From: an uncultured Clostridia bacterium
GTDB lineage: Bacteria; Bacillota; Clostridia; Christensenellales; UBA1242
Direction: 5' to 3'
Length of the DNA stretch: 64,000 nt
NCBI GenBank assembly: GCA_934778205.1
Contig: CAKVOD010000001.1
Coordinates: 59,037 to 123,036 of the forward strand
The position numbers were made by a program, and so were the translations under genes. The notes below the pieces were generated by a model, which saw only the letters and a list, made by a program, of their open reading frames with translations, searched no databases and was not told where the DNA came from. Below, one piece after another: positions 12,562-63,866 of this stretch. The number at the start of each line of letters is the position of its first letter. Within the stretch, counting starts at the first letter, position 1.

Positions 12562-12747
12562 AACTACACTCCCCTAACTTTCGTTATTCTTCAACAATAT
12601 TTTACACAAAATGACAAAATAAGTCAAACAAATTTCGCACCTTTTTTATTATTTGTAGTTTTTGGGCAAATATTCCTCATTATATGGAATACTTTTTCCT
12701 TATTAATACAGTCAATGAGGTTGAGTACCCCATAATGAAACGGGTTG

Positions 12748-12907
12748 CCCTTCCGGGAGATTTCTCCGCTTCAGCGAAAATTGCATTTTCGCTTTCGGTC
12801 GAAATGACAAATGAGTTAGTGGCTTACCACAACTTCAATATATGAAGTATATAGGTTGAATCAGCCAAATCCGCACAAGTGGCGTCTGCCACCGGTCGAA
12901 ATGACAA
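12748..12907 (+). repeat. Intergenic repeat family B (CCCTTCCGGGAGATTTCTCC ... GGTCGAAATGACA x2)
   Basis: Same architecture as 18527-18706 and 63708-63866, with conserved ends and variable-sequence hairpins at fixed positions. The second half carries the family A hairpin gtggcgtctgccac. Confidence 0.75.
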
Positions 12908-12966
12908 ATAAGTGATTATCTCCCCATAAAAAATGTTAAATTATCCTAAAAATGCGGCATTCCCCC

Positions 12967-18489: not shown

Positions 18490-18526
18490 TCTTTCTCCTT
18501 CTTTATTATCTACTTCATTTAATTCC

Positions 18527-18706
18527 CCCTTCCGGGAGATTTCTCCGCGTCGGCGAGGGCTGACGCCTCCGCCTTTGGTCGAAATGACAACGGGGGTGTG
18601 TTGCTTATCACAATTTTAACGTACAAAGTATGTAGCGTGCACTCGCCAAACCTGAACCTGTGGCGTTTGCCATTGGTCGAAATGACAGCGGACGATGCGT
18701 GTCCGC
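18527..18706 (+). repeat. Intergenic repeat family B
   Basis: cccttccgggagatttctccgc-hairpin-ggtcgaaatgacaa ... gcactcgccaaacctgaacctgtggcgtttgccattggtcgaaatgaca, then hairpin gcggac/gtccgc. Confidence 0.75.
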
Positions 18707-51949: not shown

Positions 51950-52362
51950 AACACTACTCACTCACATAATTACAATAAAAACTAGACAACCAAACTAGTT
52001 CGGTTGTCTAGATACTGATACAAGCAATAATGACTAAAAATTTTTATTTATTCAACCCCAATATTTGATAAAGTGCCTGTAATAATCAACTTTTTTGAAA
52101 GTAAAATCCAATAAAACAACTCCAAATGAAAGTCACAAAAGCGAAACAAGCCACTTTTGATAAGCAACTTGTTTGGGTTGTAAAATCTATAGGTTGTATA
52201 ATAAATAGGTTGTATAATAAATATTAGGTTAGGTAAAAAAATAAAAGTCGAGCAATCTAAAGTCTACTTTAGATTCCTCGAACTGTCTTGCAAAAAAAAT
52301 GTGACTTAGTGAAAATCAATGTTCGTCACATTCATTTTTGTTGTGCGTATCCGTGCAATTTA

Positions 52363-52407
52363 TGGTGCGTCCTAAGAGATTCGAACTCCTGACCTTTGGT
52401 TCCGTAG
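52363..52407 (-). repeat. att direct repeat: displaced 3' portion of tRNA-Arg(ACG)
   Basis: tggtgcgtcctaagagattcgaactcctgacctttggttccgtag is identical over 45 nt to 62754-62798. Sequences diverge immediately on both sides. Confidence 0.95.
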
Positions 52408-52482
52408 TTCTTCTCTCGACGCACTTTTTGTCTCGAATATACTATTGTATATTCGTTTTTTTTTAAATGTGTTGTCTCATTT

Positions 52483-53472
52483 TTATTTTAGGTCAAAATT
52501 AATATTATTAAATTGTTCAATTGCTTTTTGGTTTTGCCCTTTGTCGTACTTGATATAATACTTTTGCGTCGTTTGCACGTCCGAATGCCCCATCCATTGT
52601 TGGATGACTAAGTCGTCTATTTCCATTTTATGCGCAAGCGTTGCAAATGTTGTGCGAAAGTCTTTGACTGAAAAAGTTATTCCTGTTCTTTGTTTTATGT
52701 CCACTATTTCACGTTTAAGCGTTGAGTCTGATACATTGAATACAAACTCAGTTTCTTTGCTTTGCCCCTCTAACAATGCTTTGACTTTGCTAAATAATGG
52801 CATATACCTGTCGGAACTAATGCGTTTTGTTCCCGGTATATGTATTGTATTTGTCTCGAAGTCAATATCATTCCATTTGATTGACAGCGCTTCAGTTTTT
52901 CTGCAACCTGTGTATAAGTAAAACAAAAACAAATTTCTAACTTTTTTTCTAGCACAATTATTTAATATTAATCTAATTGTATTGTCATTTAGCGCTTTTC
53001 CCTCTTTAGGTCTATGCACGACGGGTTCTACCATATCTGCAATATTTTTGTCAATTAATTCAAGCCGATATGCCTTTCTCAGACAATCACCCAAAATTAC
53101 ATACGCTGTTCGACGTTGTTTGCTCGAATTAATTTTACTTAGCGTTTTGTCTATGTCATATACTCGCAATTCCTTTAACGGGATGTTTTCAAAATTCGAC
53201 TTTATGTGTACTTTGATTACACTTTTCATTGTTCTAATGCTACTTTGCTTTAGTTTTGGTAGCTTATAAGTGTTGTACCACTCATCAAGCCATTCAAATA
53301 AAGTTATGTCGTTTTTCATAAATTGCTCCTTACTTGTGCAATTTATGTCGTTACAAATTTCCCCTTTGTAATCTTTAATGTTGTAAACAATTGCATCATC
53401 TTTTACTAACCTCAGGGCTCTTGACTCCTCTAGCCCCTCGATATAAGCGTCCAAATATACAATTTGTTCCAT
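52483..53472 (-). CDS. int: Tyrosine-type site-specific recombinase / phage integrase
   Basis: 329 aa. ...YTGCRKTEALSIKWNDID..., ...DFRTTFATLA..., ...WMGHSDVQTTQKYY (catalytic Tyr box). Confidence 0.88.
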   Translation of the reverse strand: MEQIVYLDAYIEGLEESRALRLVKDDAIVYNIKDYKGEICNDINCTSKEQFMKNDITLFEWLDEWYNTYKLPKLKQSSIRTMKSVIKVHIKSNFENIPLKELRVYDIDKTLSKINSSKQRRTAYVILGDCLRKAYRLELIDKNIADMVEPVVHRPKEGKALNDNTIRLILNNCARKKVRNLFLFYLYTGCRKTEALSIKWNDIDFETNTIHIPGTKRISSDRYMPLFSKVKALLEGQSKETEFVFNVSDSTLKREIVDIKQRTGITFSVKDFRTTFATLAHKMEIDDLVIQQWMGHSDVQTTQKYYIKYDKGQNQKAIEQFNNINFDLK

Positions 53473-53561
53473 TATGTTTTTAATGTTTTTTTAAGTTTTC
53501 AAATTTTTCCGTATCAATTACCATACCTTTCTCCTCTTTTTACCCCTTGCGGGGCTTAGTA

Positions 53562-53921
53562 TTAGTAATTGAATTTGTTTTTACTTTCGGTATTTTGAAT
53601 AGACTTTGTAAGTCGATTGTCAATAAGTCCTTGCATATAGCCTTTTACTTTAATTTTTTCAATGTCGCTTAGACTATTGAACATTTTTAACATTTCATTT
53701 TCTTCTGTTGTTGGTTCATTTTTTTCATTTACTTCATCTATTAAATACTCGATTTTCACATTAAATAAATTTGCAATTTTTTTGAGCATTTCTAAATTTG
53801 GTTCCGTAGTTCCAACTTCATATGATGAATATGTGGTTTGTGCAATGTTTAAGTAATCCGCTACTTGCTTTTGACTTTTGTTTCGTTCTTTTCTCAAACT
53901 TTTCAATTTTTCTTGTAGCAT
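53562..53921 (-). CDS. XRE/CI-type HTH repressor (element B)
   Basis: MLQEKLKSLRKERNKSQKQVADYLNIAQTTYSSYEVGTTEPNLEMLKKIANLFNV. Divergent from the structural operon. Confidence 0.85.
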   Translation of the reverse strand: MLQEKLKSLRKERNKSQKQVADYLNIAQTTYSSYEVGTTEPNLEMLKKIANLFNVKIEYLIDEVNEKNEPTTEENEMLKMFNSLSDIEKIKVKGYMQGLIDNRLTKSIQNTESKNKFNY

Positions 53922-53936
53922 AAATAAATTTTACCA
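53919..53936 (-). promoter_or_regulatory. Extended -10 promoter placed for a leaderless repressor mRNA
   Basis: On the minus strand: TGgTAAAAT (53936-53928), then 6 nt (ttattt), then the ATG at 53921. No Shine-Dalgarno. Confidence 0.45.
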
Positions 53937-53940
53937 TATA

Positions 53941-54070
53941 TTTTGTTAAAAGATAGATAAAAAATTAAAAAAATTAACAAAAAGAGTGTTAAAATAGTTG
54001 CTTTTTAACGTTTTTTTTGTTAAAATAGCGTTGTAACGAAAAATATGTTAGCATTTAACGATATTTTCGC
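53941..54070. promoter_or_regulatory. Operator-like repeats in the divergent control region of element B
   Basis: TGTTAAAATAG occurs exactly twice (53987-53997, 54018-54028; 31 bp apart), plus TGTTAAAAG at 53944. Inverted repeat gttaaaa/ttttaac, and near-perfect inverted repeat cgaaaaatat (54037-54046) / atattttcg (54061-54069). Confidence 0.5.
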
Positions 54071-54088
54071 TAAAAAGGAGACACAAAA

Positions 54089-54463
54089 ATGATGACACAA
54101 AAAGAAAATCAAAAATTCGCAGATGATTTTGCATTTGACTTTAGTAACAATTTTGATGAACTAAAAAAACGTTTAGATGATTGCGCTGTAGCTCTGATAT
54201 TCAACACCTTTGAAGAATATGAGGTATTCCGCGACGAATGCAACCGATTGAAAGAACTCGAGCAATCGCAAATAAAGCAAATTAAAGAGCTTAAACAATC
54301 GCAAAAACAACTTGCGTATGACGAATTATGGCATATATTGTTTAATTTTGATATGTATGCAGATGAAACAAATAATACTATGGTAAGCGTTGATTCCGAC
54401 GGTATGTGCATACAAGATTACATTCTTGCTAGACTTAGAGATTTTTGGGGGTACCGACAATGA
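54089..54463 (+). CDS. First ORF of the element B operon, hypothetical (acidic, coiled-coil-like)
   Basis: 124 aa with AAGGAG RBS. Shares the MTQKEN N-terminus with 5328-5624. Confidence 0.6.
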   Translation: MMTQKENQKFADDFAFDFSNNFDELKKRLDDCAVALIFNTFEEYEVFRDECNRLKELEQSQIKQIKELKQSQKQLAYDELWHILFNFDMYADETNNTMVSVDSDGMCIQDYILARLRDFWGYRQ

Positions 54464-55194
54464 ATGACTTATATTGTAAAGACTTTGAGTTCTTAAACAA
54501 AGAGAATCAAAAAGCATATGACAATCTCAAACAAACTATACTTAAGCGCAGTCGGCTTGACTTGGAGTTTCTACAAAGGTTTATACAATTTTCGTCAAAG
54601 GCCTTTTGTTCTATTCAATTTATTTGCGTGCGCAGTTCTGGCGTATATGCAAAGGATGATACACGCATTGGTGCGATTAATTTTTGTGCCGATTATTTAG
54701 GACTTAGCGAAAGTACAGTTAAAAAACTATATCTAACATATGAACGCTTTATCATTGACAAGTTCGACGTCGAACTTTCAAACGAAAAAACGTTTTCTTG
54801 GCTTGTTCCTGAGTTCAACGATATGTCATTGACAAAGATATTTGAGTTGCTTTCGATTTCGTATAATCAGTTAAACAAAGATTTTGAGAAAGGCACTATT
54901 TCGCCAAATATGACAGTTAAACAGTTGCGCGATTATGTCAAAGCATTCAAGGACGGAAACGCCCTTGCCGAAAAAGTGCTTGAAGAACACGCCGACAAGG
55001 ACGAAGAACCGGAAGAACAACCGACCGACTATTCGCAGTGTCGCAAAACATATGACAAGATTATTTCGTATATTGACTTTTTTAAGTCAACGGAAGAAAC
55101 TGACCCCGTACAACTAAAAAAATTGTTTGTAACTGACTTGCATAGCATCAAAAATGCGCTTATCAAAGAATTTGGGCTTGAAATAGACAAATAA
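54460..55194 (+). CDS. Conserved element protein (244 aa), function unknown
   Basis: ATGA overlap with the upstream stop. Homolog of 4604-5335 (see that entry). Confidence 0.7.
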   Translation: MNDLYCKDFEFLNKENQKAYDNLKQTILKRSRLDLEFLQRFIQFSSKAFCSIQFICVRSSGVYAKDDTRIGAINFCADYLGLSESTVKKLYLTYERFIIDKFDVELSNEKTFSWLVPEFNDMSLTKIFELLSISYNQLNKDFEKGTISPNMTVKQLRDYVKAFKDGNALAEKVLEEHADKDEEPEEQPTDYSQCRKTYDKIISYIDFFKSTEETDPVQLKKLFVTDLHSIKNALIKEFGLEIDK

Positions 55195-55198
55195 GCCC

Positions 55199-55238
55199 TT
55201 GCGGGCTGAGCGAACCGCATTATAAATTACACTTAGGG
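55199..55238 (+). other. Non-coding block conserved with element A (candidate cis-acting site)
   Basis: ttgcgggctgagcgaaccgcattataaattacacttaggg matches the reverse complement of 4561-4600 at most positions, with one 1-nt indel. Confidence 0.55.
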
Positions 55239-55508
55239 GGTACGGAGACAACCACCATCGTGTTAAATTTGTGTCATTACCTCCCCTGAAACTAATGCAA
55301 TCGCGTTTGTTTTTCTCCTTTTGTGTTTATTTACTTCAAATTGTACTCTTAAAAATAATGTAACTCATTCCCATTTCTAAACAAACGCGCGGGCTGGGTG
55401 TCCCGATAACACGCCCACCATACACCCTGTTGGGTGGAAATCTTGCAAGATTGACAATGTGCCGTAGCGATTAAGACAAACAAAAAAAATAAATTATGAG
55501 GTGAAAAA

Positions 55509-55691
55509 ATGGCGTATTATAAAAGACGCACACAACGCAAAAAAAAGTCGAACAGAACAGAACTTGAAAAACTTGCATTTAATATGGGCAAAGTAGAACG
55601 CGGGCTAAATAATCCTAATAGCCGAGTATATGAGTCGTACAAAAATGGCAAAACTGGTAAAACGTCTAGTAAGAGAAAACCATTGATTTAG
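55509..55691 (+). CDS. Small highly basic conserved protein (60 aa)
   Basis: GAGGTG RBS. Homolog of 4285-4479. Confidence 0.65.
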   Translation: MAYYKRRTQRKKKSNRTELEKLAFNMGKVERGLNNPNSRVYESYKNGKTGKTSSKRKPLI

Positions 55692-55692
55692 T

Positions 55693-56019
55693 ATGGCTAA
55701 AAAACTATTACGAAAGCGCGAAGTGCGTACTGATTTAAACCCTAATCATTTTAATAAATATGGTAAACCGCATAACGCAATAATTAGCGCTAAACAGGGT
55801 CATAAATATAAAGCTAATACAATTACACATTCACAATTTGTCAATAGTGTTTTAACTTTAGATTTAGACGAAAATAACATACATATACCCTATAAAAAGC
55901 ATACACGCATTAGTCCACCTTTTTGGCAAAATGAAAATATGTTTGGAGAAAAACAAAATACGAAAGTTCCAAGAAGAATAATGCGTAAAATCAAGCACTA
56001 CAACAAAAAATTTAAATAA
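55693..56019 (+). CDS. Basic hypothetical protein
   Basis: 108 aa. The ATG lies 1 nt after the upstream stop. Confidence 0.55.
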   Translation: MAKKLLRKREVRTDLNPNHFNKYGKPHNAIISAKQGHKYKANTITHSQFVNSVLTLDLDENNIHIPYKKHTRISPPFWQNENMFGEKQNTKVPRRIMRKIKHYNKKFK

Positions 56020-56154
56020 AAAAAAGGGAAATTCAATACCCGAGCTGTGTTACCACAAGATGTCGACTTAACGACCATTTGAATTTCCTAGTACATTATA
56101 CACTAAAAAACAAATATTGTCAAGAGTTTGACAACAAAAAAAGGAAGGTAAAAA

Positions 56155-56274
56155 ATGAATACACAAATTAACACGTTAAACGAACAAATCAGACAACGCA
56201 GAACAAAGAAGTATGCGCTTGAGATGTTAGGTCTCAAAAAATCTACAAAGGGGGTAATTATTAATGCAGATTAA
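56155..56274 (+). CDS. Small ORF, 39 aa, overlapping the start of the SSB-like gene; absent from the ORF track
   Basis: Reads MNTQINTLNEQIRQRRTKKYALEMLGLKKSTKGVIINAD with AAGGAAGG RBS. Counterpart of 4144-4269. Confidence 0.4.
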   Translation: MNTQINTLNEQIRQRRTKKYALEMLGLKKSTKGVIINAD

Positions 56275-56701
56275 AGACGGAAAACTTATTTTGAGTGCGG
56301 GCGAAAAATTGTTCCCCGCAAAGTATCTAGGACACGAAATAGTCAAAGGCAACCGCAAGTCGGACAATACGCCGTACAACTACACAAAACATCGTTTTGA
56401 CTTAATTTTGACGCGTGTTGACGGCACAACATACACAAAGTTTTGTGAATGTCTGCTCGACCCTAACGAAAAATTGAGAATTGCCCCATATTCAAATGTA
56501 TATGTTGTATTTAGCATAATGAACAACCCGCTAAAAGCCCCAACGGCAATTTACTTTGTGCCACGTCACGAGGACCCCAAAGCGCCGGAAGTTCCAGAAG
56601 GTGGAGTTTTAGAACCCACAATCCCAGATGAAGAATTGCCCCCAATGCCAACCTCTGAGAGTATAACCCCCGTTGTAGACGACGAACACATACCATTTTA
56701 A
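56264..56701 (+). CDS. Putative ssDNA-binding protein with a bacterial-SSB-like disordered linker and acidic IPF tip
   Basis: About 95 aa of globular N-terminus, then a Pro/Glu-rich linker (PRHEDPKAPEVPEGGVLEPTIPDEELPPMPTSE) ending ...VVDDEHIPF. Compare the DDDIPF/DDDLPF tips of bacterial SSBs. Confidence 0.55.
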   Translation: MQIKDGKLILSAGEKLFPAKYLGHEIVKGNRKSDNTPYNYTKHRFDLILTRVDGTTYTKFCECLLDPNEKLRIAPYSNVYVVFSIMNNPLKAPTAIYFVPRHEDPKAPEVPEGGVLEPTIPDEELPPMPTSESITPVVDDEHIPF

Positions 56702-56984
56702 CAACTAAGGTACACAAGACAAGCCACAAAGCAATACCCGCGTCAGCCACTTGAGGGGTATGGGGGTGCGCCCCCATTGTTGCAAAACAACGCGTAACAC
56801 GAAGATAGAATGTGCCACTCCCCAAACGACGCAAACATCCGTGTAGGCACGACCCCCACCGCCCTATCTAGCCATAGAACGCGGTAAAACCTCCCGACGT
56901 CGTCGAAACAAAGGACGTCCACAACGGCAAATGCCGTGTACCATTTCCCCTCTCATCCCATTATATTAATAAGATTTAAAAGGA
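56702..56984 (+). other. GC-rich structured non-coding region (candidate origin or packaging region of element B)
   Basis: 283 bp with no supported ORF. Hairpins atggggg-tgcg-cccccat (56760-56777) and acggca-aa-tgccgt (56923-56936), palindrome cgacgtcg. Visibly more G+C than the flanking genes. Confidence 0.5.
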
Positions 56985-56993
56985 GTGAAAACA

Positions 56994-57188
56994 ATGATAA
57001 AACTAATATTAACCATAGTTGCAATAATAGCATTGTACCTATTATTCGGTGGCATAGTGTTTAACTTGTTATCATCCTTTTTTGACATACTGGCCACGGC
57101 AACCCGCTGGCTAGGAAAGATAGTCGACTGGTACGGGGTAACACCGCTACTATCTAATTTACAAATGATTGCCCCACAAAATCTATAA
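56994..57188 (+). CDS. Small hydrophobic protein, 64 aa (coat or membrane protein candidate)
   Basis: ATG lies 8 nt after AGGAG (the track start at 56985 is a GTG). MIKLILTIVAIIALYLLFGGIVFNLLSSFFDILATATRWLGKIVDWYGV... is homologous to 3131-3295. Confidence 0.65.
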   Translation: MIKLILTIVAIIALYLLFGGIVFNLLSSFFDILATATRWLGKIVDWYGVTPLLSNLQMIAPQNL

Positions 57189-57199
57189 AGGAGTAAAAA

Positions 57200-59221
57200 A
57201 TGGAATTAAAAAAAGTGCTAATTTGGGCAGTAGTGATTGCATTGCTTGGCTTAATTTTTGCGTTTACATTTACAACCGCAAAAGACCTTATTGACAAGTC
57301 GGGTAAAACATCCGCTGAAATCGGAATGGACGCAATTAACGACGGGCTATCTGGCAAAACAAATGGTGGTGTCCTTGACCCACAAATTAAAAAAGAAACT
57401 GCCGAACCTACTGCCCCGAAATTGAGTGATGAAGTTAATACGATGTATTATCAAGAAAATTCACTCGGCGTAACTATTTACTACGTATTAAAGACCGAAG
57501 AAAATGGCAAGATTAAAACCATATATCCAAACTTGTTCTTTCGCAAAACGGATAATGGGCTAATGCTAGACGGCGTCGCAAATGCGTCTCTCGAAACTAA
57601 AAAAGGCTATAATTTTGACGGCATTTCTTTAGATGTAGATTTTACGACTAAGCCAAAACTTGTGACAACATCGCAGTCAAAAAATATTTATAAACTTTAT
57701 GAATATCAAAATGTTGCATCTATAACTGACACACATTGCTACTATTGGAAGAATTACGACAATAGCCGTTATTTTACCGGACCTAGTAAAAAAGAGCAAA
57801 AGAAATGTGCCGAAATCGTCGGTACTGCAGTCGGCGAAATTATTGAAAAGTATTTTACCAATATATTTGGCTGGGGATTGATTTTGCAGTCAAACACTAA
57901 AGATAATCAATTGCAAAACTTTAAACGTTATACCTCATACTTGTGGAACTGCTTGCCTGAAAGCAAAGTAAGTGAGCACGCATCTACAAGCGCAATAGCA
58001 GATGTAACCGATTTGTTTGCAAAAATGATACCAACAGCATTGCAAAAAAATTATCCTGTACCTGATTCTAAAAAGGTTGAACTTGGTATTGATTATTTTA
58101 GGTTCTATAATGTCAATAAGTTTATTGATGTACGCTATAGTTATGTTGGTACTGCATATAAGCCAATGTCGAAACCCGATAGAACGACCATAGAGACCGA
58201 AACAAACTATCCAAAAGTTACCCCGCCAAAGGTAACAAGGATGTTAACAACCGTAAAACTTGTTAACTCAACAGGTGTTTCATTAACTGGTGTTGACTTT
58301 GTTACTAACCCTGTAACAATAGACTTTAAAGCAGACAATAACACCGCACAAGTTATATTTGACAGTGTCGATGATGTTATAACAAGTCAAAATGTTGTGC
58401 TTAATGTCAATACAAAGTATACATATAGCATAACATCATCATATTTGTGCTTTGCGTCATTTACTGGTACAGTTACAACAAGTGATAAAGCGCAAACGCT
58501 ATCATTTGACTACACATATGAAAATGGAGCAGTTGTTGCATATCTAGGGCTAAATGCCGTTGGTACAATTGATTTTAATACAATCAATTTGGCGCATACG
58601 CCTGTAAAAATAACGCTTTCGAGTGGTCAATCGGTTACTTGGAACAAAAACGAATATTTTGATGTTAAGTACTCGCTATTGCTACCTATCGGCGAAATCG
58701 AGTATACAATCTTATCAGACGGCTTAACATTTGCATCAACTACTGGCAAATTTACAATAGACGCACAAAATCGCATACAGTTGTTTAACTGTGGTATGAG
58801 TGTAGAACCTGACATTGTTTTGAGCGTCGGGACTGAGGACGCATCTTGTTCTATTGATAGCACTAATATAATATTGCTATATGCACGTGCTGATGAATTT
58901 AGCGAATTTACAAATGCGGGGTATAACCTATCTGCGTATTTGTATGATGGCGAAACTCAATATGCATTGACAAGTTGTCAACCCCCTTCTGGTGGTGCAA
59001 GTCTTGTAAATACTGCAAAAATATGTTTTGAATTACCATCCAATTTTGATACCACCGCATATGGCGCTGACTATCATATATACAAATTACAATTAAAGTT
59101 ATCTAATGGTTCAAAAGTATATTTGTCAAATTTAGTCGACTTTAAACAATATTATTGTGATGAAAATCATAATGTCCGCCGAACAAGTTTTTCAGATATT
59201 CAATTCAACATAACACTATAA
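57200..59221 (+). CDS. Large N-terminally membrane-anchored protein (putative adsorption / pIII-like minor coat protein)
   Basis: 673 aa with TM VLIWAVVIALLGLIFAFTF and AAGGAG RBS. The position after the small hydrophobic ORF is typical of inovirus receptor-binding proteins. No recognisable motif. Confidence 0.55.
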   Translation: MELKKVLIWAVVIALLGLIFAFTFTTAKDLIDKSGKTSAEIGMDAINDGLSGKTNGGVLDPQIKKETAEPTAPKLSDEVNTMYYQENSLGVTIYYVLKTEENGKIKTIYPNLFFRKTDNGLMLDGVANASLETKKGYNFDGISLDVDFTTKPKLVTTSQSKNIYKLYEYQNVASITDTHCYYWKNYDNSRYFTGPSKKEQKKCAEIVGTAVGEIIEKYFTNIFGWGLILQSNTKDNQLQNFKRYTSYLWNCLPESKVSEHASTSAIADVTDLFAKMIPTALQKNYPVPDSKKVELGIDYFRFYNVNKFIDVRYSYVGTAYKPMSKPDRTTIETETNYPKVTPPKVTRMLTTVKLVNSTGVSLTGVDFVTNPVTIDFKADNNTAQVIFDSVDDVITSQNVVLNVNTKYTYSITSSYLCFASFTGTVTTSDKAQTLSFDYTYENGAVVAYLGLNAVGTIDFNTINLAHTPVKITLSSGQSVTWNKNEYFDVKYSLLLPIGEIEYTILSDGLTFASTTGKFTIDAQNRIQLFNCGMSVEPDIVLSVGTEDASCSIDSTNIILLYARADEFSEFTNAGYNLSAYLYDGETQYALTSCQPPSGGASLVNTAKICFELPSNFDTTAYGADYHIYKLQLKLSNGSKVYLSNLVDFKQYYCDENHNVRRTSFSDIQFNITL

Positions 59222-59248
59222 AATACATAAACAAGGAGATTAAAAACT

Positions 59249-59854
59249 ATGTATAACAGTTCAAAAAATATTTTTACTGGCATACTATGCTTTGTCGTAG
59301 TGGCCGCAATTCTAGTAGGCGCGTTGTTCGCCTGTGGAGTCTTTAAAAAAGACACAACAACTGGCACGAAATTGCCAATCGTATACCCTGACAAAAACAT
59401 TAACTGGGTACAAGTAAATGACACAACTTTGCGTGCGTCATTCAATGACCAACTCAACATTAATCCTAAGCAAAAAAGTATTATTATTACAATGTATGTC
59501 AATGACATTAGTGAGAAAATCACAATGTATTTGACTCAAAGCGAAACGAATAACGAACTTAGTTATGAGGTATGGCATCGTGATGGCGGCGTCAATGGTT
59601 ACGAACAATTTGGCATTTATGATAAAGCCACTGAAACTGAACAAAGCTATCGTATAAAAGTTGTTATGTACAACAACGCCACACTTACCGACGCTGGAGA
59701 TGTAACATCTGGAAAAGGTTTTGTGCTTGAATTTGGCGGATTTGATAAAGTCACGAACAATGATAGTGGTGACGTTTACACACCTGTAGCCATTGAGAAA
59801 ATCAAGATTACAGCAATTTACCAACAAGGCGACAATGACAAGTTGCTTGCCTAA
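59249..59854 (+). CDS. N-terminally membrane-anchored protein (virion or assembly candidate)
   Basis: 201 aa with TM ILCFVVVAAILVGALFACGVF and AAGGAG RBS. Confidence 0.6.
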   Translation: MYNSSKNIFTGILCFVVVAAILVGALFACGVFKKDTTTGTKLPIVYPDKNINWVQVNDTTLRASFNDQLNINPKQKSIIITMYVNDISEKITMYLTQSETNNELSYEVWHRDGGVNGYEQFGIYDKATETEQSYRIKVVMYNNATLTDAGDVTSGKGFVLEFGGFDKVTNNDSGDVYTPVAIEKIKITAIYQQGDNDKLLA

Positions 59855-59870
59855 ACAACAATAAAAGTAC

Positions 59871-59890
59871 AAAGGGGAGTTTTCCCCTTT
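59871..59890 (+). terminator. Hairpin (attenuator or terminator-like) upstream of the Zot-like gene
   Basis: Stem aaagggga/tccccttt with a 4-nt loop and short T-tract. Confidence 0.45.
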
Positions 59891-59912
59891 TGTCATATAT
59901 GGAGTTTTTAGA

Positions 59913-60854
59913 ATGATAACAATAATTTGTGGCGCGCCCGGGGCTGGCAAAACGGCACTAATGACATATTTTGCGCTTGAATATCTTAACTATGATATTG
60001 ATTATTTGTCTTGCCTTGACAAGATAGCGCAATATAATCGACAAGGCTTTAATTTGTCCACCCCGCAACACCTTGTGTTTTCTGACTGGAAAATTGCTTG
60101 TAACTCGCAAACGCTTGGTAATTGTGAAAGTTATTTTTGCAACGGGTTTTATATTGGTATGCCAAACAATCAACATCGCACAATGTTTTTGCCCCCATAT
60201 AGCAAGATATTTTTGTCAGAGGCACAACGTTATTATGATAGTCGCAAATATGAGTCACTATCTGATTTTGTTAGTCAACTATATGAGCAACACCGCCACT
60301 GGGGTATGCAAATATTCCTTGACTGCCAACGCCCTACCCTTGTTGACCTCAACATCCGTGGACTAGCAACACGCATATTGTATGTTACTAACCTTAGGCA
60401 CGACATTGACACGTATGGGCGCATAGTATCATCCACGTGGACGTGCAAGCAGTTTGGCAACATATATGATTTTGACAACTTTTTGCAAAATGCCAAAACT
60501 GACATTGGCGAACCTGTAGAGTTCACGTATAGCAACAAAGTTATTGTATCTCAACCGCTACAATTTCGAGATACGCCAAAGTTTGTAAATGTCACAAACT
60601 ATCGTGTAGTGAAAAACAAAAGCGTTGTGCAGTTCCCTTGTGATATATTTGCTAGTTATAACAGCACAAACAAGGAAAGCGCGTTTTTGCGTGGACGTCA
60701 ACGTTGTGATTTTTCATTGTATACACACCCAACCGATGATGCATACATAACCGAACTTGATGACATTTATAGTTGCGAGGCGCCCCGCACGTTCTACAAA
60801 CTCAAAGACAAAGACTTGCAAAAATTAGAAAAAGGAAAGGTATTGACAATATGA
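59913..60854 (+). CDS. Zot/pI-like P-loop morphogenesis ATPase
   Basis: MITIICGAPGAGKTALMTYF (Walker A) and IFLSEAQ (Walker-B-like). Homolog of 603-1409. Confidence 0.78.
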   Translation: MITIICGAPGAGKTALMTYFALEYLNYDIDYLSCLDKIAQYNRQGFNLSTPQHLVFSDWKIACNSQTLGNCESYFCNGFYIGMPNNQHRTMFLPPYSKIFLSEAQRYYDSRKYESLSDFVSQLYEQHRHWGMQIFLDCQRPTLVDLNIRGLATRILYVTNLRHDIDTYGRIVSSTWTCKQFGNIYDFDNFLQNAKTDIGEPVEFTYSNKVIVSQPLQFRDTPKFVNVTNYRVVKNKSVVQFPCDIFASYNSTNKESAFLRGRQRCDFSLYTHPTDDAYITELDDIYSCEAPRTFYKLKDKDLQKLEKGKVLTI

Positions 60855-61333
60855 TTAATATACACAGTGAGTTTGACGACCTTATCCGCGAATATATAGA
60901 ACGCTTTGCCGAACTTGCCGGGAACTCCCGCGTACTTGTGCAAACGTTTTACAAGAAAGTTGACAAGCAAATAACAAAGCGTTTCGAGTTCGAAAACAAA
61001 ATCTTGCGAAAACTTGATAAATATCGCTATAAAGTCATCAAACAAGACATACGACGCGAATATGGTTGGTGGGCGCGATTTAAGCGTTGGATGCGCGGAA
61101 AGCGAACACGCGCGCGCACCGACGCTGAGTGCCCGCCAACTAAAGACGCCCCAAAAGTCGAAAGTTCCGCATTGCTCGACAAGGTTACCAACCTAACACA
61201 AACAGTTGCAAAGATACAACAATCTATACAACCCGAAATGTTAGAACAACAACCTATAGAATCGCAAATGATTAATAACAGTAATCAACTGCAAATTGAG
61301 CAAGCGACGTATGAATTAGAACAAGATAATTAG
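60851..61333 (+). CDS. Hypothetical protein with basic centre and Gln-rich tail
   Basis: ATGA overlap with the Zot-like stop; MINIHSEFDDLIREY... The longer track ORF starts inside the Zot-like gene. Confidence 0.55.
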   Translation: MINIHSEFDDLIREYIERFAELAGNSRVLVQTFYKKVDKQITKRFEFENKILRKLDKYRYKVIKQDIRREYGWWARFKRWMRGKRTRARTDAECPPTKDAPKVESSALLDKVTNLTQTVAKIQQSIQPEMLEQQPIESQMINNSNQLQIEQATYELEQDN

Positions 61334-61415
61334 ACGCGCAAGCAAAAAAAATCTTGTGTTCATACATAAGAATTAAATGCCCCATTTTTTGAATGGTGGA
61401 AAGGATGTGGCATAG

Positions 61416-62345
61416 ATGAAATATCACGATTTCATCGACAAAAGAAAATTAAATATAAGTACAATAATACCTGCATTGCAAGACGCTGGTTTCGACAAAA
61501 AAGCCGACCACATACTGCAGTGCGGAAATCGTCGGTTCTTTGGCGTGTGCAAAGAATGTGGCGCAACACATTTCAACGGCGTGCTTGCGTGCAAACAACG
61601 CTTTTGCGCAGTGTGCCAAAAGAAACGCAGTTTACTTTGGTATATGAGGATGTTACCATTGTTCAAATACTATATGGCGCAAGGCAACAAAATTGTTTTT
61701 GTTACCTTTACAGTTAAAGATACCGAAAAACTAACAGACGGATTAAATTATCTACAAGATGCGTTCCGCTTAATGATAGGAAAAGGCAACAAAATAACAA
61801 AAGCATTTAACTGCTTATTCCTTGGTGGTGTGCGTTCAATTGAAATCAAGCGCGGTGCAAACTCGGGCTTGTGGCATCCACACGCCCACTGTTTATTTAT
61901 AAAACGAGATAACAACCCTTTTAAAGAAGATTTTGAGTTCTTGCGCAGTGTCTGGAATGATTGTCTTTGCACTGTTCACGGCGAACGCGCAAAATGGGGT
62001 TCAGTGGACTACAAGGCAATAAAAGTACTAAACGACGGATGTAAAGCAATTTGCGAATGTTTTAAGTACTCTACAAAATTCGATTGGCAAAATAATACGG
62101 ACGACGTCAAAGAACTTGTGGAAAGTTTGCACCGCCAACACTTAATTGTGCCATTTGGCGAAGTTCGAAAAGACTTGAACGAAAATTCAGTCGAACACGA
62201 CTTAATTTTGCCATACACACAATTGAAAAAACAATTTTGCGCAGTTTGTGGCAACGATTCATTTGACGAAATCTATATGGACGCGCACGACTGCAATAAA
62301 CTAATAAACATTTATGATTTTATGTCGGAGGATAACGAAGAATGA
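61416..62345 (+). CDS. Rolling-circle replication initiator, HUH superfamily, pC194/pUB110 (Rep_1)-like
   Basis: Motif 1 VFVTFTV, HUH motif GLWHPHAHCLFI, and active-site motif E-C-F-K-Y-S-T-K (E-x-x-K-Y as in pC194 RepA). N-terminal Cys cluster CGNRRFFGVCKECG...CKQRFCAVCQKKR. Confidence 0.75.
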   Translation: MKYHDFIDKRKLNISTIIPALQDAGFDKKADHILQCGNRRFFGVCKECGATHFNGVLACKQRFCAVCQKKRSLLWYMRMLPLFKYYMAQGNKIVFVTFTVKDTEKLTDGLNYLQDAFRLMIGKGNKITKAFNCLFLGGVRSIEIKRGANSGLWHPHAHCLFIKRDNNPFKEDFEFLRSVWNDCLCTVHGERAKWGSVDYKAIKVLNDGCKAICECFKYSTKFDWQNNTDDVKELVESLHRQHLIVPFGEVRKDLNENSVEHDLILPYTQLKKQFCAVCGNDSFDEIYMDAHDCNKLINIYDFMSEDNEE

Positions 62346-62674
62346 TTAAAAACGTAACAGAACGCAACGCATTGCGTTTGCTTGGACAACGCGATATGTT
62401 GTATAAAGTAATAACAACCCTTGCAGAACGTCGCAAACGAATAACTATACCATTTCGCTATAATGAAATAAACGACCTACTCGGCAAAATGGTGCAGGAC
62501 TTGGAACGACAGGAAAACAAGCAACAAGTGCGCGAATACTTAACAACCCGCGAACAACTTGAGTATGATAACTACACAACAAGTTTTGCCCGCTATGCCG
62601 TCAAGCACGTGCAAAACATTGAATACGCGCAAATGTTGCTTTGCCCTGATACATTAGTTAGTAAAATCAAGTGA
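62342..62674 (+). CDS. Hypothetical protein
   Basis: 110 aa with ATGA overlap onto the Rep stop. Confidence 0.55.
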   Translation: MIKNVTERNALRLLGQRDMLYKVITTLAERRKRITIPFRYNEINDLLGKMVQDLERQENKQQVREYLTTREQLEYDNYTTSFARYAVKHVQNIEYAQMLLCPDTLVSKIK

Positions 62675-62708
62675 CCTTTGGTCCAAAATAAAAAAGGGTC
62701 AAAAAACA

Positions 62709-62750
62709 AAACAAGCCACTTGTCAAAAGTGGCTTGTTTGCTATGTTTTT
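62709..62750. terminator. Bidirectional terminator (last phage gene / tRNA-Arg)
   Basis: 12-bp stem aaacaagccact/agtggcttgttt with T-runs on both strands. Confidence 0.65.
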
Positions 62751-62753
62751 GGC

Positions 62754-62830
62754 TGGTGCGTCCTAAGAGATTCGAACTCCTGACCTTTGGTTCCGTAGAC
62801 CAACGCTCTATCCAGCTGAGCTAAGGACGC
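62754..62830 (-). tRNA. tRNA-Arg (anticodon ACG)
   Basis: The reverse complement folds as GCGTCCT TA GCTC AGCTGGATA GAGC G TTGGT CTACGGA ACCAA AGGTC AGGAG TTCGAAT CTCTT AGGACGC A CCA. All four stems pair; anticodon is ACG. Confidence 0.93.
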
Positions 62831-63626: not shown

Positions 63627-63707
63627 ACGATAAATAATGCTGTTTAATTTTTTATTAATCATTGCTGACGCGGTCAATTTGTGTTTGTAACCCATAATAT
63701 TAAGAGT

Positions 63708-63866
63708 CCCCTTCCGGGAGATTTCTCCACTACGGCGGCGACTACGTCGCCAACTTCAGTCGAAATGACAACGGGGTAAGTGGCTCCCCACGTTTCTAAC
63801 ACACAAAGTGTCTGGGAGCACGCATCAAACCTGCACCTGTGGCGTATGTTGCCTGTTGAAATGATA
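63708..63866 (+). repeat. Intergenic repeat family B
   Basis: ccccttccgggagatttctcc-ac-hairpin(ggcgac tac gtcgcc)-...agtcgaaatgacaacgggg ... catcaaacctgcacctgtggcgtatgttgcctgttgaaatgata. The window also ends with tgtcatttc, possibly the start of an inverted copy. Confidence 0.7.

Follow-up and report, generated by a model that had tools for sequence, protein, structure and literature searches.

The window analysed here is a stretch of 64,000 nucleotides (nt) from an uncultured Clostridia bacterium (contig CAKVOD010000001.1 of GenBank assembly GCA_934778205.1), and the element in question lies in its right-hand part, between a displaced piece of a tRNA-Arg(ACG) gene and the intact gene itself. 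We conclude, with a probability of about three in four, that this element is a temperate prophage of the inovirus-like (Tubulavirales) type, integrated and apparently intact, in a gut Clostridia bacterium that has not been cultured. It belongs to an already known group, the temperate tRNA-integrating inoviruses of monoderm hosts. Within this group, its lineage is characterized by a soluble pI, a DNA-binding protein with a tip like that of the bacterial single-stranded DNA (ssDNA)-binding protein (SSB) and the lack of a recognised coat protein. An original prediction, made from the DNA letters, had described a complete inovirus-like prophage. The inovirus-like identity was borne out: the best phage relatives are inoviruses only, and both an empty site and circular relatives exist.

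The integration site is well defined. According to ARAGORN the window contains one tRNA, the minus-strand tRNA-Arg(ACG) (62754-62830), and Rfam agreed (66.6 bits). The 3'-terminal 45 nt of this intact gene (62754-62798, attR) recur with 100% identity at 52363-52407 (attL), and a repeat search returned this pair as the one exact 45-nt direct repeat of the window. The chance of an exact 45-mer repeat within 64 kb is negligible. On the tRNA strand, the repeat begins in the anticodon loop, at position 33, and ends with the encoded CCA. ARAGORN, Rfam and the repeat search thus agree with the att sites originally proposed, and the size given for the element (about 10.4 kb) was also right: 10,346 bp (52408-62753) lie between the repeats, with the open reading frames (ORFs) at the places indicated. 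The G+C content of the element is about 0.27-0.42 vs 0.42-0.49 in the left flank.

The predicted tyrosine integrase (329 aa; 52483-53472, minus strand) was confirmed by the profile check proposed for it (Pfam Phage_integrase, 79.8 bits). It also matched Phage_int_SAM_3 and PHROG 1 (2.4e-54) and has catalytic-type residues at the motif positions (R191, K270-x-x-R273, H296 and Y305/306). The integrase gene adjoins the 45-bp identity segment, ending 75 nt from attL, the tRNA is left whole, and the element brings a new tRNA terminator hairpin. This 13-bp hairpin at the right end of the element (62709-62739) has T runs on both strands, which makes it a terminator for the phage operon and, from the other side, for the tRNA. 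Since it sits 14 nt from the tRNA 3' end, the phage provides the terminator of the host tRNA-Arg once integrated.

The Zot/pI-like morphogenesis ATPase of 313 aa (Zot313; 59913-60854, plus strand) contains Walker A (residues 7-14), Walker B-like (99-105) and HRH (127-129) motifs. The assignment proposed for this gene was upheld by the profile searches: Zot313 matched PHROG 197 'Zot-like' (1.5e-11) and the profile of its family matched the solved Zot N-terminal domain, PDB 2R2A (5.5e-12). Pfam Zot was matched by 22 of the 25 aligned family members. The alignment shows conservation of the Walker A, Walker B-like (hhhh[SD]E) and HRH motifs, and the 80 database homologs of Zot313 are mostly annotated as PF05707. 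A tblastn search of 50,697 GenBank phage records showed that Zot313 matches only three records, all of them Inoviridae: bajarodino virus 12 (36% identity, E 3e-34), Inovirus D_HF3_8 and an Inoviridae sp. record. Scanning IMG/VR with the single protein yielded no relatives, and the Zot profile retrieved distant relatives only (best 38% identity, most 24-31%).

The element appears to have moved recently. An identical Zot protein is encoded on at least nine contigs, eight of which are long contigs with the same chromosomal context. Relatives of VanW in GTDB metagenome-assembled genomes are 65-87% identical, in keeping with a Clostridia/Lachnospiraceae-like gut host. The Hadza gut contig L009, with flanks 97-98% identical to those of the element, carries VanW, an intact tRNA-Arg(ACG), the ferritin-like gene and one att copy but no element, and the same empty-site allele is present in contigs L011 and L012. 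A search for an empty tRNA-Arg site, suggested together with the original prediction, was therefore successful in three cases, and this element-free allele rules out a conserved chromosomal block. The occurrence of identical copies on at least nine contigs while conspecifics lack the element indicates recent mobility. The closest relative, L015 (Zot 93% identical), has its integrase directly beside tRNA-Thr(UGU). A sibling element, with a Zot 68% identical, was found both integrated (L016, in which the repressor lies next to the att copy) and as L017, a Logan contig of 9,229 nt which is circular according to its 30-nt (k-1) terminal overlap. The L017 junction joins the integrase end, the right-end hairpin, about 46 nt of the tRNA-Thr 3' end and the repressor end, and it is the attP of the sibling element. 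This sibling shares orf244, orf64, the large protein, orf201, Zot and orf160 with the element of the window. Four further relatives were recovered as circular contigs of 9.2-11.8 kb (L066, L072, L099 and L104).

The replication module was also assigned as predicted. The profile check of the putative HUH rolling-circle Rep (Rep309; 61416-62345, plus strand) gave 74.5 bits with Pfam Rep_1 (cutoff 33.2 bits). This Rep_1-family initiator has an N-terminal zinc ribbon and the motifs IVFVTFTV (93-100), HPHAHCLF (154-161) and ECFKYSTK (214-221); it had no match among PDB sequences. Among the same GenBank phage records, Rep309 matched Clostridium phage CAK1, Pseudomonas phage PMBT54 and six porcine Inovirus sp. 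records. Upstream in the operon, orf145 (56264-56701, plus strand) encodes a probable ssDNA-binding protein according to its predicted architecture, in which a beta-rich core (about 100 aa) is joined by a linker rich in Pro and Glu to an SSB-like tip. In the AlphaFold2 model the core is all-beta, and the Foldseek list consists mostly of SSB and OB folds, including the Ff gene V protein (prob 0.96, TM 0.60). The protein has almost no homologs. It ends with ...VVDDEHIPF, a D-D-x-x-[IL]-P-F tip, and the proteins that take its place in L015, L016 and L017, though not homologous to it, end with DDGNLPF or DDERLPF. A D-D-...-P-F C-terminal tip is the means by which bacterial SSB recruits its partner proteins.

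The element comprises 15 ORFs, the integrase and repressor genes on the minus strand and 13 on the plus strand, and nine of the 15 are without any family match. A plus-strand operon with ATGA overlaps had been described; the operon and the overlaps (at three gene pairs) were found, the number of its ORFs being 13 instead of 12. All ORFs are intact and preceded by Shine-Dalgarno-like sequences, and the coding density is 87%. Apart from the integrase, the repressor, Zot and Rep_1, no element ORF had a family match above noise in Pfam, PHROGs, NCBIfam or PADLOC, and no defence or toxin cargo was detected with these libraries. In agreement with the original prediction, no terminase, portal, capsid or tail family was matched in Pfam and PHROGs, and a tailed-phage remnant was rejected for this reason. 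Relaxase, coupling protein and type IV secretion families were likewise unmatched in Pfam, PHROGs and further library scans. The genomic criteria of Roux et al. (2019; PMC6813254) for inoviruses are a pI-like ATPase as the only conserved marker, short (30-90 aa) structural proteins with a single transmembrane segment and a small genome. The element has the Zot-domain marker and a small genome free of tailed-phage genes, and orf64 is its one single-transmembrane ORF of 30-90 aa.

The order of a 64-aa hydrophobic ORF followed by a large, N-terminally anchored one was found as described. The first, orf64 (56994-57188, plus strand), encodes the sole small membrane protein of the element, with one N-terminal hydrophobic helix, and is a candidate coat protein, major or minor. 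The second, orf673 (57200-59221, plus strand), has an N-terminal anchor and occupies the position of pIII, the adsorption protein, a role which its position would suggest; it is 28% identical to the 720-aa protein of L016/L017. The block between the SSB-like gene and orf201 consists of orf64 and orf673 here vs three anchored proteins (482, 228 and 232 aa) in L015. The product of orf201 (59249-59854, plus strand), which is conserved alongside Zot and orf160, combines an N-terminal membrane helix with a beta-sandwich. Its model is of decent quality (predicted local distance difference test, pLDDT, 76.9) and had no structural neighbour in PDB. The orf201 product is a candidate for the membrane partner of the ATPase or for a minor virion protein.

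Several observations weigh against the prophage interpretation. No protein of the element matches a known inovirus coat family in Pfam, PHROGs or further profile libraries. The acidic-N/basic-C pattern typical of G8P-type coats is not seen in the best candidate, orf64. A search of 1.84 billion representatives gave only about four short relatives of orf64 (the other matches being spurious, to giant repetitive proteins), and the ORF is missing from the closest relative L015. Zot313 alone is only marginal for Pfam Zot (20.4 bits vs the cutoff of 20.3), and neither it nor 78 of its 80 homologs has a hydrophobic helix, unlike classical pI proteins such as Ff gp1 and CTXphi Zot. The orf145 model is of low confidence (pLDDT 59.5) and none of its Foldseek matches is significant (all E >= 0.066). 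A search for CTTGATA located no Rep_1-type nick site or origin; inside the att-bounded element this heptamer occurs in coding sequence only (52549, 57449 and 61013) and not above chance. On the left side, 0.3-0.5 kb beside attL differs between the occupied and the empty alleles and, because of this difference, the precision of insertion on the attL side cannot be shown. Finally, the attP junction of the element (62753 joined to 52408), proposed as a check, was not found as an exact match of 8 nt of the right end, the 45-nt att and 8 nt of the left end in IMG/VR or JGI metagenome contigs, a negative result that carries no information because the samples with the element are ENA/Logan data. Since neither a canonical major coat protein nor this junction was recovered, the original description of the prophage as complete was not sustained. 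As to the missing helix, CAK1 G1P also lacks one, so a pI membrane segment is not a defining feature of Clostridia inoviruses, and its absence from Zot313, the 78 homologs and CAK1 G1P looks like a trait of this Clostridia group and not a defect.

These points bear differently on the competing explanations. An integrated rolling-circle plasmid or mobilisable island, in which the Zot-like ATPase and the membrane proteins serve DNA export or another membrane function and no virion is made, would account for the soluble ATPase and for the lack of a recognisable coat protein. Rep_1 is chiefly an initiator family of Gram-positive plasmids, and several circular relatives also have no small membrane protein, as far as a crude ORF caller can detect one. 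Such a non-viral element is nevertheless improbable. Among the GenBank phages, both Zot and Rep match inovirus records only, and CAK1, which is filamentous, shares the Rep type, the helix-less pI and the gene order. Bajarodino virus 12, with a Zot 36% identical, is a circular 9.8-kb faecal genome deposited as an inovirus, and the conjugation-related families (relaxase, coupling protein and type IV secretion) remained unmatched in the profile libraries scanned.

A defective or helper-dependent prophage, which has lost its major coat gene, has kept integration, replication and the assembly ATPase and is either inert or reliant on a co-resident phage, is an explanation we regard as quite unlikely. 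The unrecognised major coat protein and the attP junction missing from IMG/VR and JGI metagenome contigs are what it would lead one to expect, and close relatives have exchanged the whole structural block that lies between the SSB-like gene and orf201. On the other hand, all ORFs are intact and provided with ribosome-binding sites, identical copies lie on at least nine contigs while conspecifics lack the element, a sign of recent mobility, and a sibling with the same orf64-orf720-orf201 block occurs as a circle. That the window derives from a metagenome scaffold raises the question of an assembly or binning artefact joining phage and host contigs; this is scarcely credible, as identical junctions are present in several independent assemblies and samples and the repeat matches the tRNA 3' end exactly, which site-specific integration predicts.

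A temperate prophage remains the preferred interpretation. Most members of the lineage are without a G8P-type coat. One circular relative, L104, encodes a classic Pf3-like coat candidate of 55 aa, and several others show no small membrane protein with the crude ORF caller. It is conceivable, if rather doubtful, that the lineage with soluble Zot, orf201, the SSB-tipped protein and very basic small proteins assembles its particle with a coat that has no relation to those known from inoviruses. If so, these ssDNA phages of gut Clostridia, filamentous or rod-shaped, would form a group of their own at family level, with an assembly motor split into an ATPase and a separate anchor.

The control of lysogeny can be outlined from the left part of the element. 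A CI-like repressor had been predicted, and a helix-turn-helix (HTH) repressor of the XRE/Cro-CI type (119 aa; 53562-53921, minus strand) was found (Pfam HTH_3 68.6 bits; PHROG repressor families). The autocleaving domain of lambda CI/LexA-type repressors is not part of it: Pfam matched HTH_3-type domains only, and the S24 peptidase domain is absent from the protein. An SOS-cleavage switch is therefore not expected. The divergent control region (53922-54088) contains inverted repeats on TTAACAAAA/TTTTGTTAA at 53928-54023, which are candidate operators. We propose that the XRE-type repressor, transcribed away from the 13-gene operon across these operator-like repeats, silences the prophage. After excision, the Rep_1 HUH endonuclease would nick the plus strand and start rolling-circle replication, and orf145, with its SSB-like acidic ...IPF tip, would coat the single strand and recruit host replication factors. 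The soluble Zot/pI-like ATPase, together with membrane-anchored orf201, orf64 and orf673 and perhaps orf160, would act at the cytoplasmic membrane, where the DNA receives its coat protein and the particles would be extruded without lysis. A secretin would be unnecessary since the host is monoderm.

Two non-coding regions of the operon are conserved at the DNA level. The first (IG1; 55195-55508, plus strand) is 84% identical in L015 (2180-2505), 77% in L016/L017 (L017 1325-1617) and 88% over 60 nt in L063 (388-451). It contains conserved hairpins (GCGGG...CCGC, and GGGGG...CCCC around GAC...GTC), with one compensatory pair only among the four sequences. IG1 has been kept between elements whose proteins diverged far more and whose Rep genes are of different families. 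Because elements sharing it replicate with another kind of Rep (PF23343, G2P type), IG1 is not an origin tied to one Rep; it may act as a signal for packaging, as the origin of the complementary strand or as a promoter, or it may encode an RNA. The second region (IG2; 56702-56993, plus strand; 292 nt, G+C 0.48) is 82% identical in L015, and a gap of similar size is found at its position in L016/L017. It is C-rich on the plus strand, lies directly upstream of the structural genes and contains several short perfect hairpins, e.g. ATGGGGGTGCGCCCCCAT; its fold z-score is only -1.6 and Rfam gave no match. Judging from sequence, IG1 and IG2 are candidate cis sites for packaging or complementary-strand synthesis. 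They are not known RNA families, as Rfam matched only the tRNA when run on the whole element at E up to 1. A perfect sigma-70 consensus, TTGACA-17-TATAAT, was found on the minus strand between orf108 and orf39 (56095-56123), antisense to the operon, and is also present in L015 (3177-3205). Such a promoter could drive a regulatory antisense RNA or prime synthesis on the plus strand.

The remaining ORFs, all on the plus strand, are conserved to different degrees. The acidic orf124 (54089-54463) has a homolog in L015 which is 67% identical. The best conserved protein after Zot is encoded by orf244 (54460-55194), with homologs in L015, L016 and L017 that are 65-69% identical. Two very basic proteins are encoded by orf60 (55509-55691; isoelectric point 10.7) and orf108 (55693-56019; isoelectric point 10.5), and the basic orf39 (56155-56274) is 94% identical to its L015 copy. 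The start of the basic orf160 (60851-61333) overlaps the Zot stop (ATGA), and this gene is kept in L015, L016, L017 and L063. The last gene, orf110 (62342-62674), accompanies the Rep_1 gene, and its homolog follows Rep_1 in L063. Modules have been swapped between these relatives: in L015 (9112-10939) and L017 (7297-9136), the Rep is of the G2P type (PF23343), the integrase lies at the right end and the att belongs to tRNA-Thr. In contrast, the element of the window combines Rep_1 and orf110, a pair also present in L063, with an integrase at the left end and an att of tRNA-Arg, and its integrase is only about 35% identical to those of its close relatives. Many relatives (L064-L067, L018 and L015) have RelB/YafQ or RelB/ParE toxin-antitoxin pairs beside the repressor; the element of the window has none.

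The chromosomal surroundings of the element are variable as well. The flank left of attL (52078-52362), outside the element, differs completely from the 504 nt present at the same place in the empty-site allele (L009 9135-9638), and a hairpin in it (52144-52174) is a degenerate likeness of the right-end terminator of the element. In a related metagenome-assembled genome, L003 (10287-10904), a copy of the right-end hairpin sequence and the 45-mer are followed by unrelated DNA. The difference between the flanks of the alleles and the arrangement in L003 point to a recombination hotspot with a layered history, and the tRNA-Arg site seems to have been used repeatedly by different elements. The left flank also holds a short tandem repeat (aggttgtataataaat x2), and in L009 an apparent 5'-truncated gene abuts the tRNA. 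A sequence of about 130-185 nt on the 3' side of the ferritin-like gene (about 63662-63785) recurs at 12709-12909 and 18526-18669 with 68-76% identity, one copy being inverted, and is probably an intergenic repeat of the host with dispersed copies.

Isolates of filamentous phages from Gram-positive bacteria are few (CAK1, B5 and the Enterocloster phages), and according to a 2026 preprint such phages are still largely unexplored. The closest deposited phage record for Zot is bajarodino virus 12 (PQ006185), a circular 9.8-kb 'Inovirus' from rodent faeces which is classed by deposition and not by morphology. As in the element of the window, its integrase and repressor are encoded on the opposite strand, and its Zot is preceded by large proteins with N-terminal anchors and has itself no membrane helix; besides Zot, only the HTH repressor is detectably similar. 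The filamentous CAK1 (OX639564) comes from a Clostridia host and has a homologous Rep (23% identity, E 5e-11) and a pI/G1P-like ATPase without a membrane helix, although the similarity of the latter to Zot313 is marginal (E 0.001). The gene orders run in parallel: the ssDNA-binding protein, small membrane proteins with G8P, the G3P-like, G6P-like and G1P proteins and a second assembly protein in CAK1, and orf145, orf64, orf673, orf201, Zot313 and orf160 here. In contrast to the element, the 6.6-kb genome of CAK1 has neither an integrase nor a CI-type lysogeny module annotated. Its G8P-like coat of 88 aa is of the classic kind, having a signal peptide and a basic C-terminus, and the gene after G1P encodes a second P-loop protein.

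The inovirus prophages of Enterocloster (Lachnospiraceae), flanked by direct repeats, were shown in experiments to be secreted and filamentous (Burckhardt et al. 2023; PMC10061712). They resemble the element in their gut Clostridia hosts, small repeat-flanked prophages, Zot/pI marker and strain-variable presence. Unlike the element, they encode a G8P-like coat that carries a signal peptide and a pI whose N-terminus contains a membrane segment; their ssDNA-binding protein is RstB-like, and their Rep is of another kind (PMC10061712 Table S5). Between Zot313 and the E. bolteae pI, identity over the ATPase core is no more than 21% (E 1e-4), which indicates that the Enterocloster phages are another lineage.

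On a broader scale, Roux et al. (2019; PMC6813254) used pI-like ATPases and short genes to detect thousands of inovirus sequences. Among them were 582 isolate-genome prophages with att repeats in a tRNA or outside the integrase gene, many prophages having at their ends direct repeats of 10 bp or more that lie in a tRNA or beside the integrase, and some of the candidate families (six were proposed) were tied to monoderm hosts. Rolling-circle replication, tyrosine-recombinase and toxin-antitoxin modules were shuffled among these inoviruses. The mixing of replication and integration modules between the element of the window and L015/L017 is in agreement with this; the subfamily of the element, in contrast, is barely represented in IMG/VR. 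The claim of an undescribed system could not be maintained, since tRNA-integrated inovirus prophages with tyrosine recombinases in monoderm hosts were already included in that survey (PMC6813254), inovirus secretion in Lachnospiraceae had been reported (PMC10061712) and CAK1 has the same Rep type and a helix-less pI. The picture of what inoviruses are or where they occur is thus unchanged by the element, which poses two questions on inovirus assembly in monoderm hosts, the membrane anchor of a soluble pI-like ATPase and the identity of the coat protein. To the few known phages of this kind it adds a well-delimited, apparently active example from uncultured human-gut Clostridia, with defined att sites, an empty-site allele and circular relatives.

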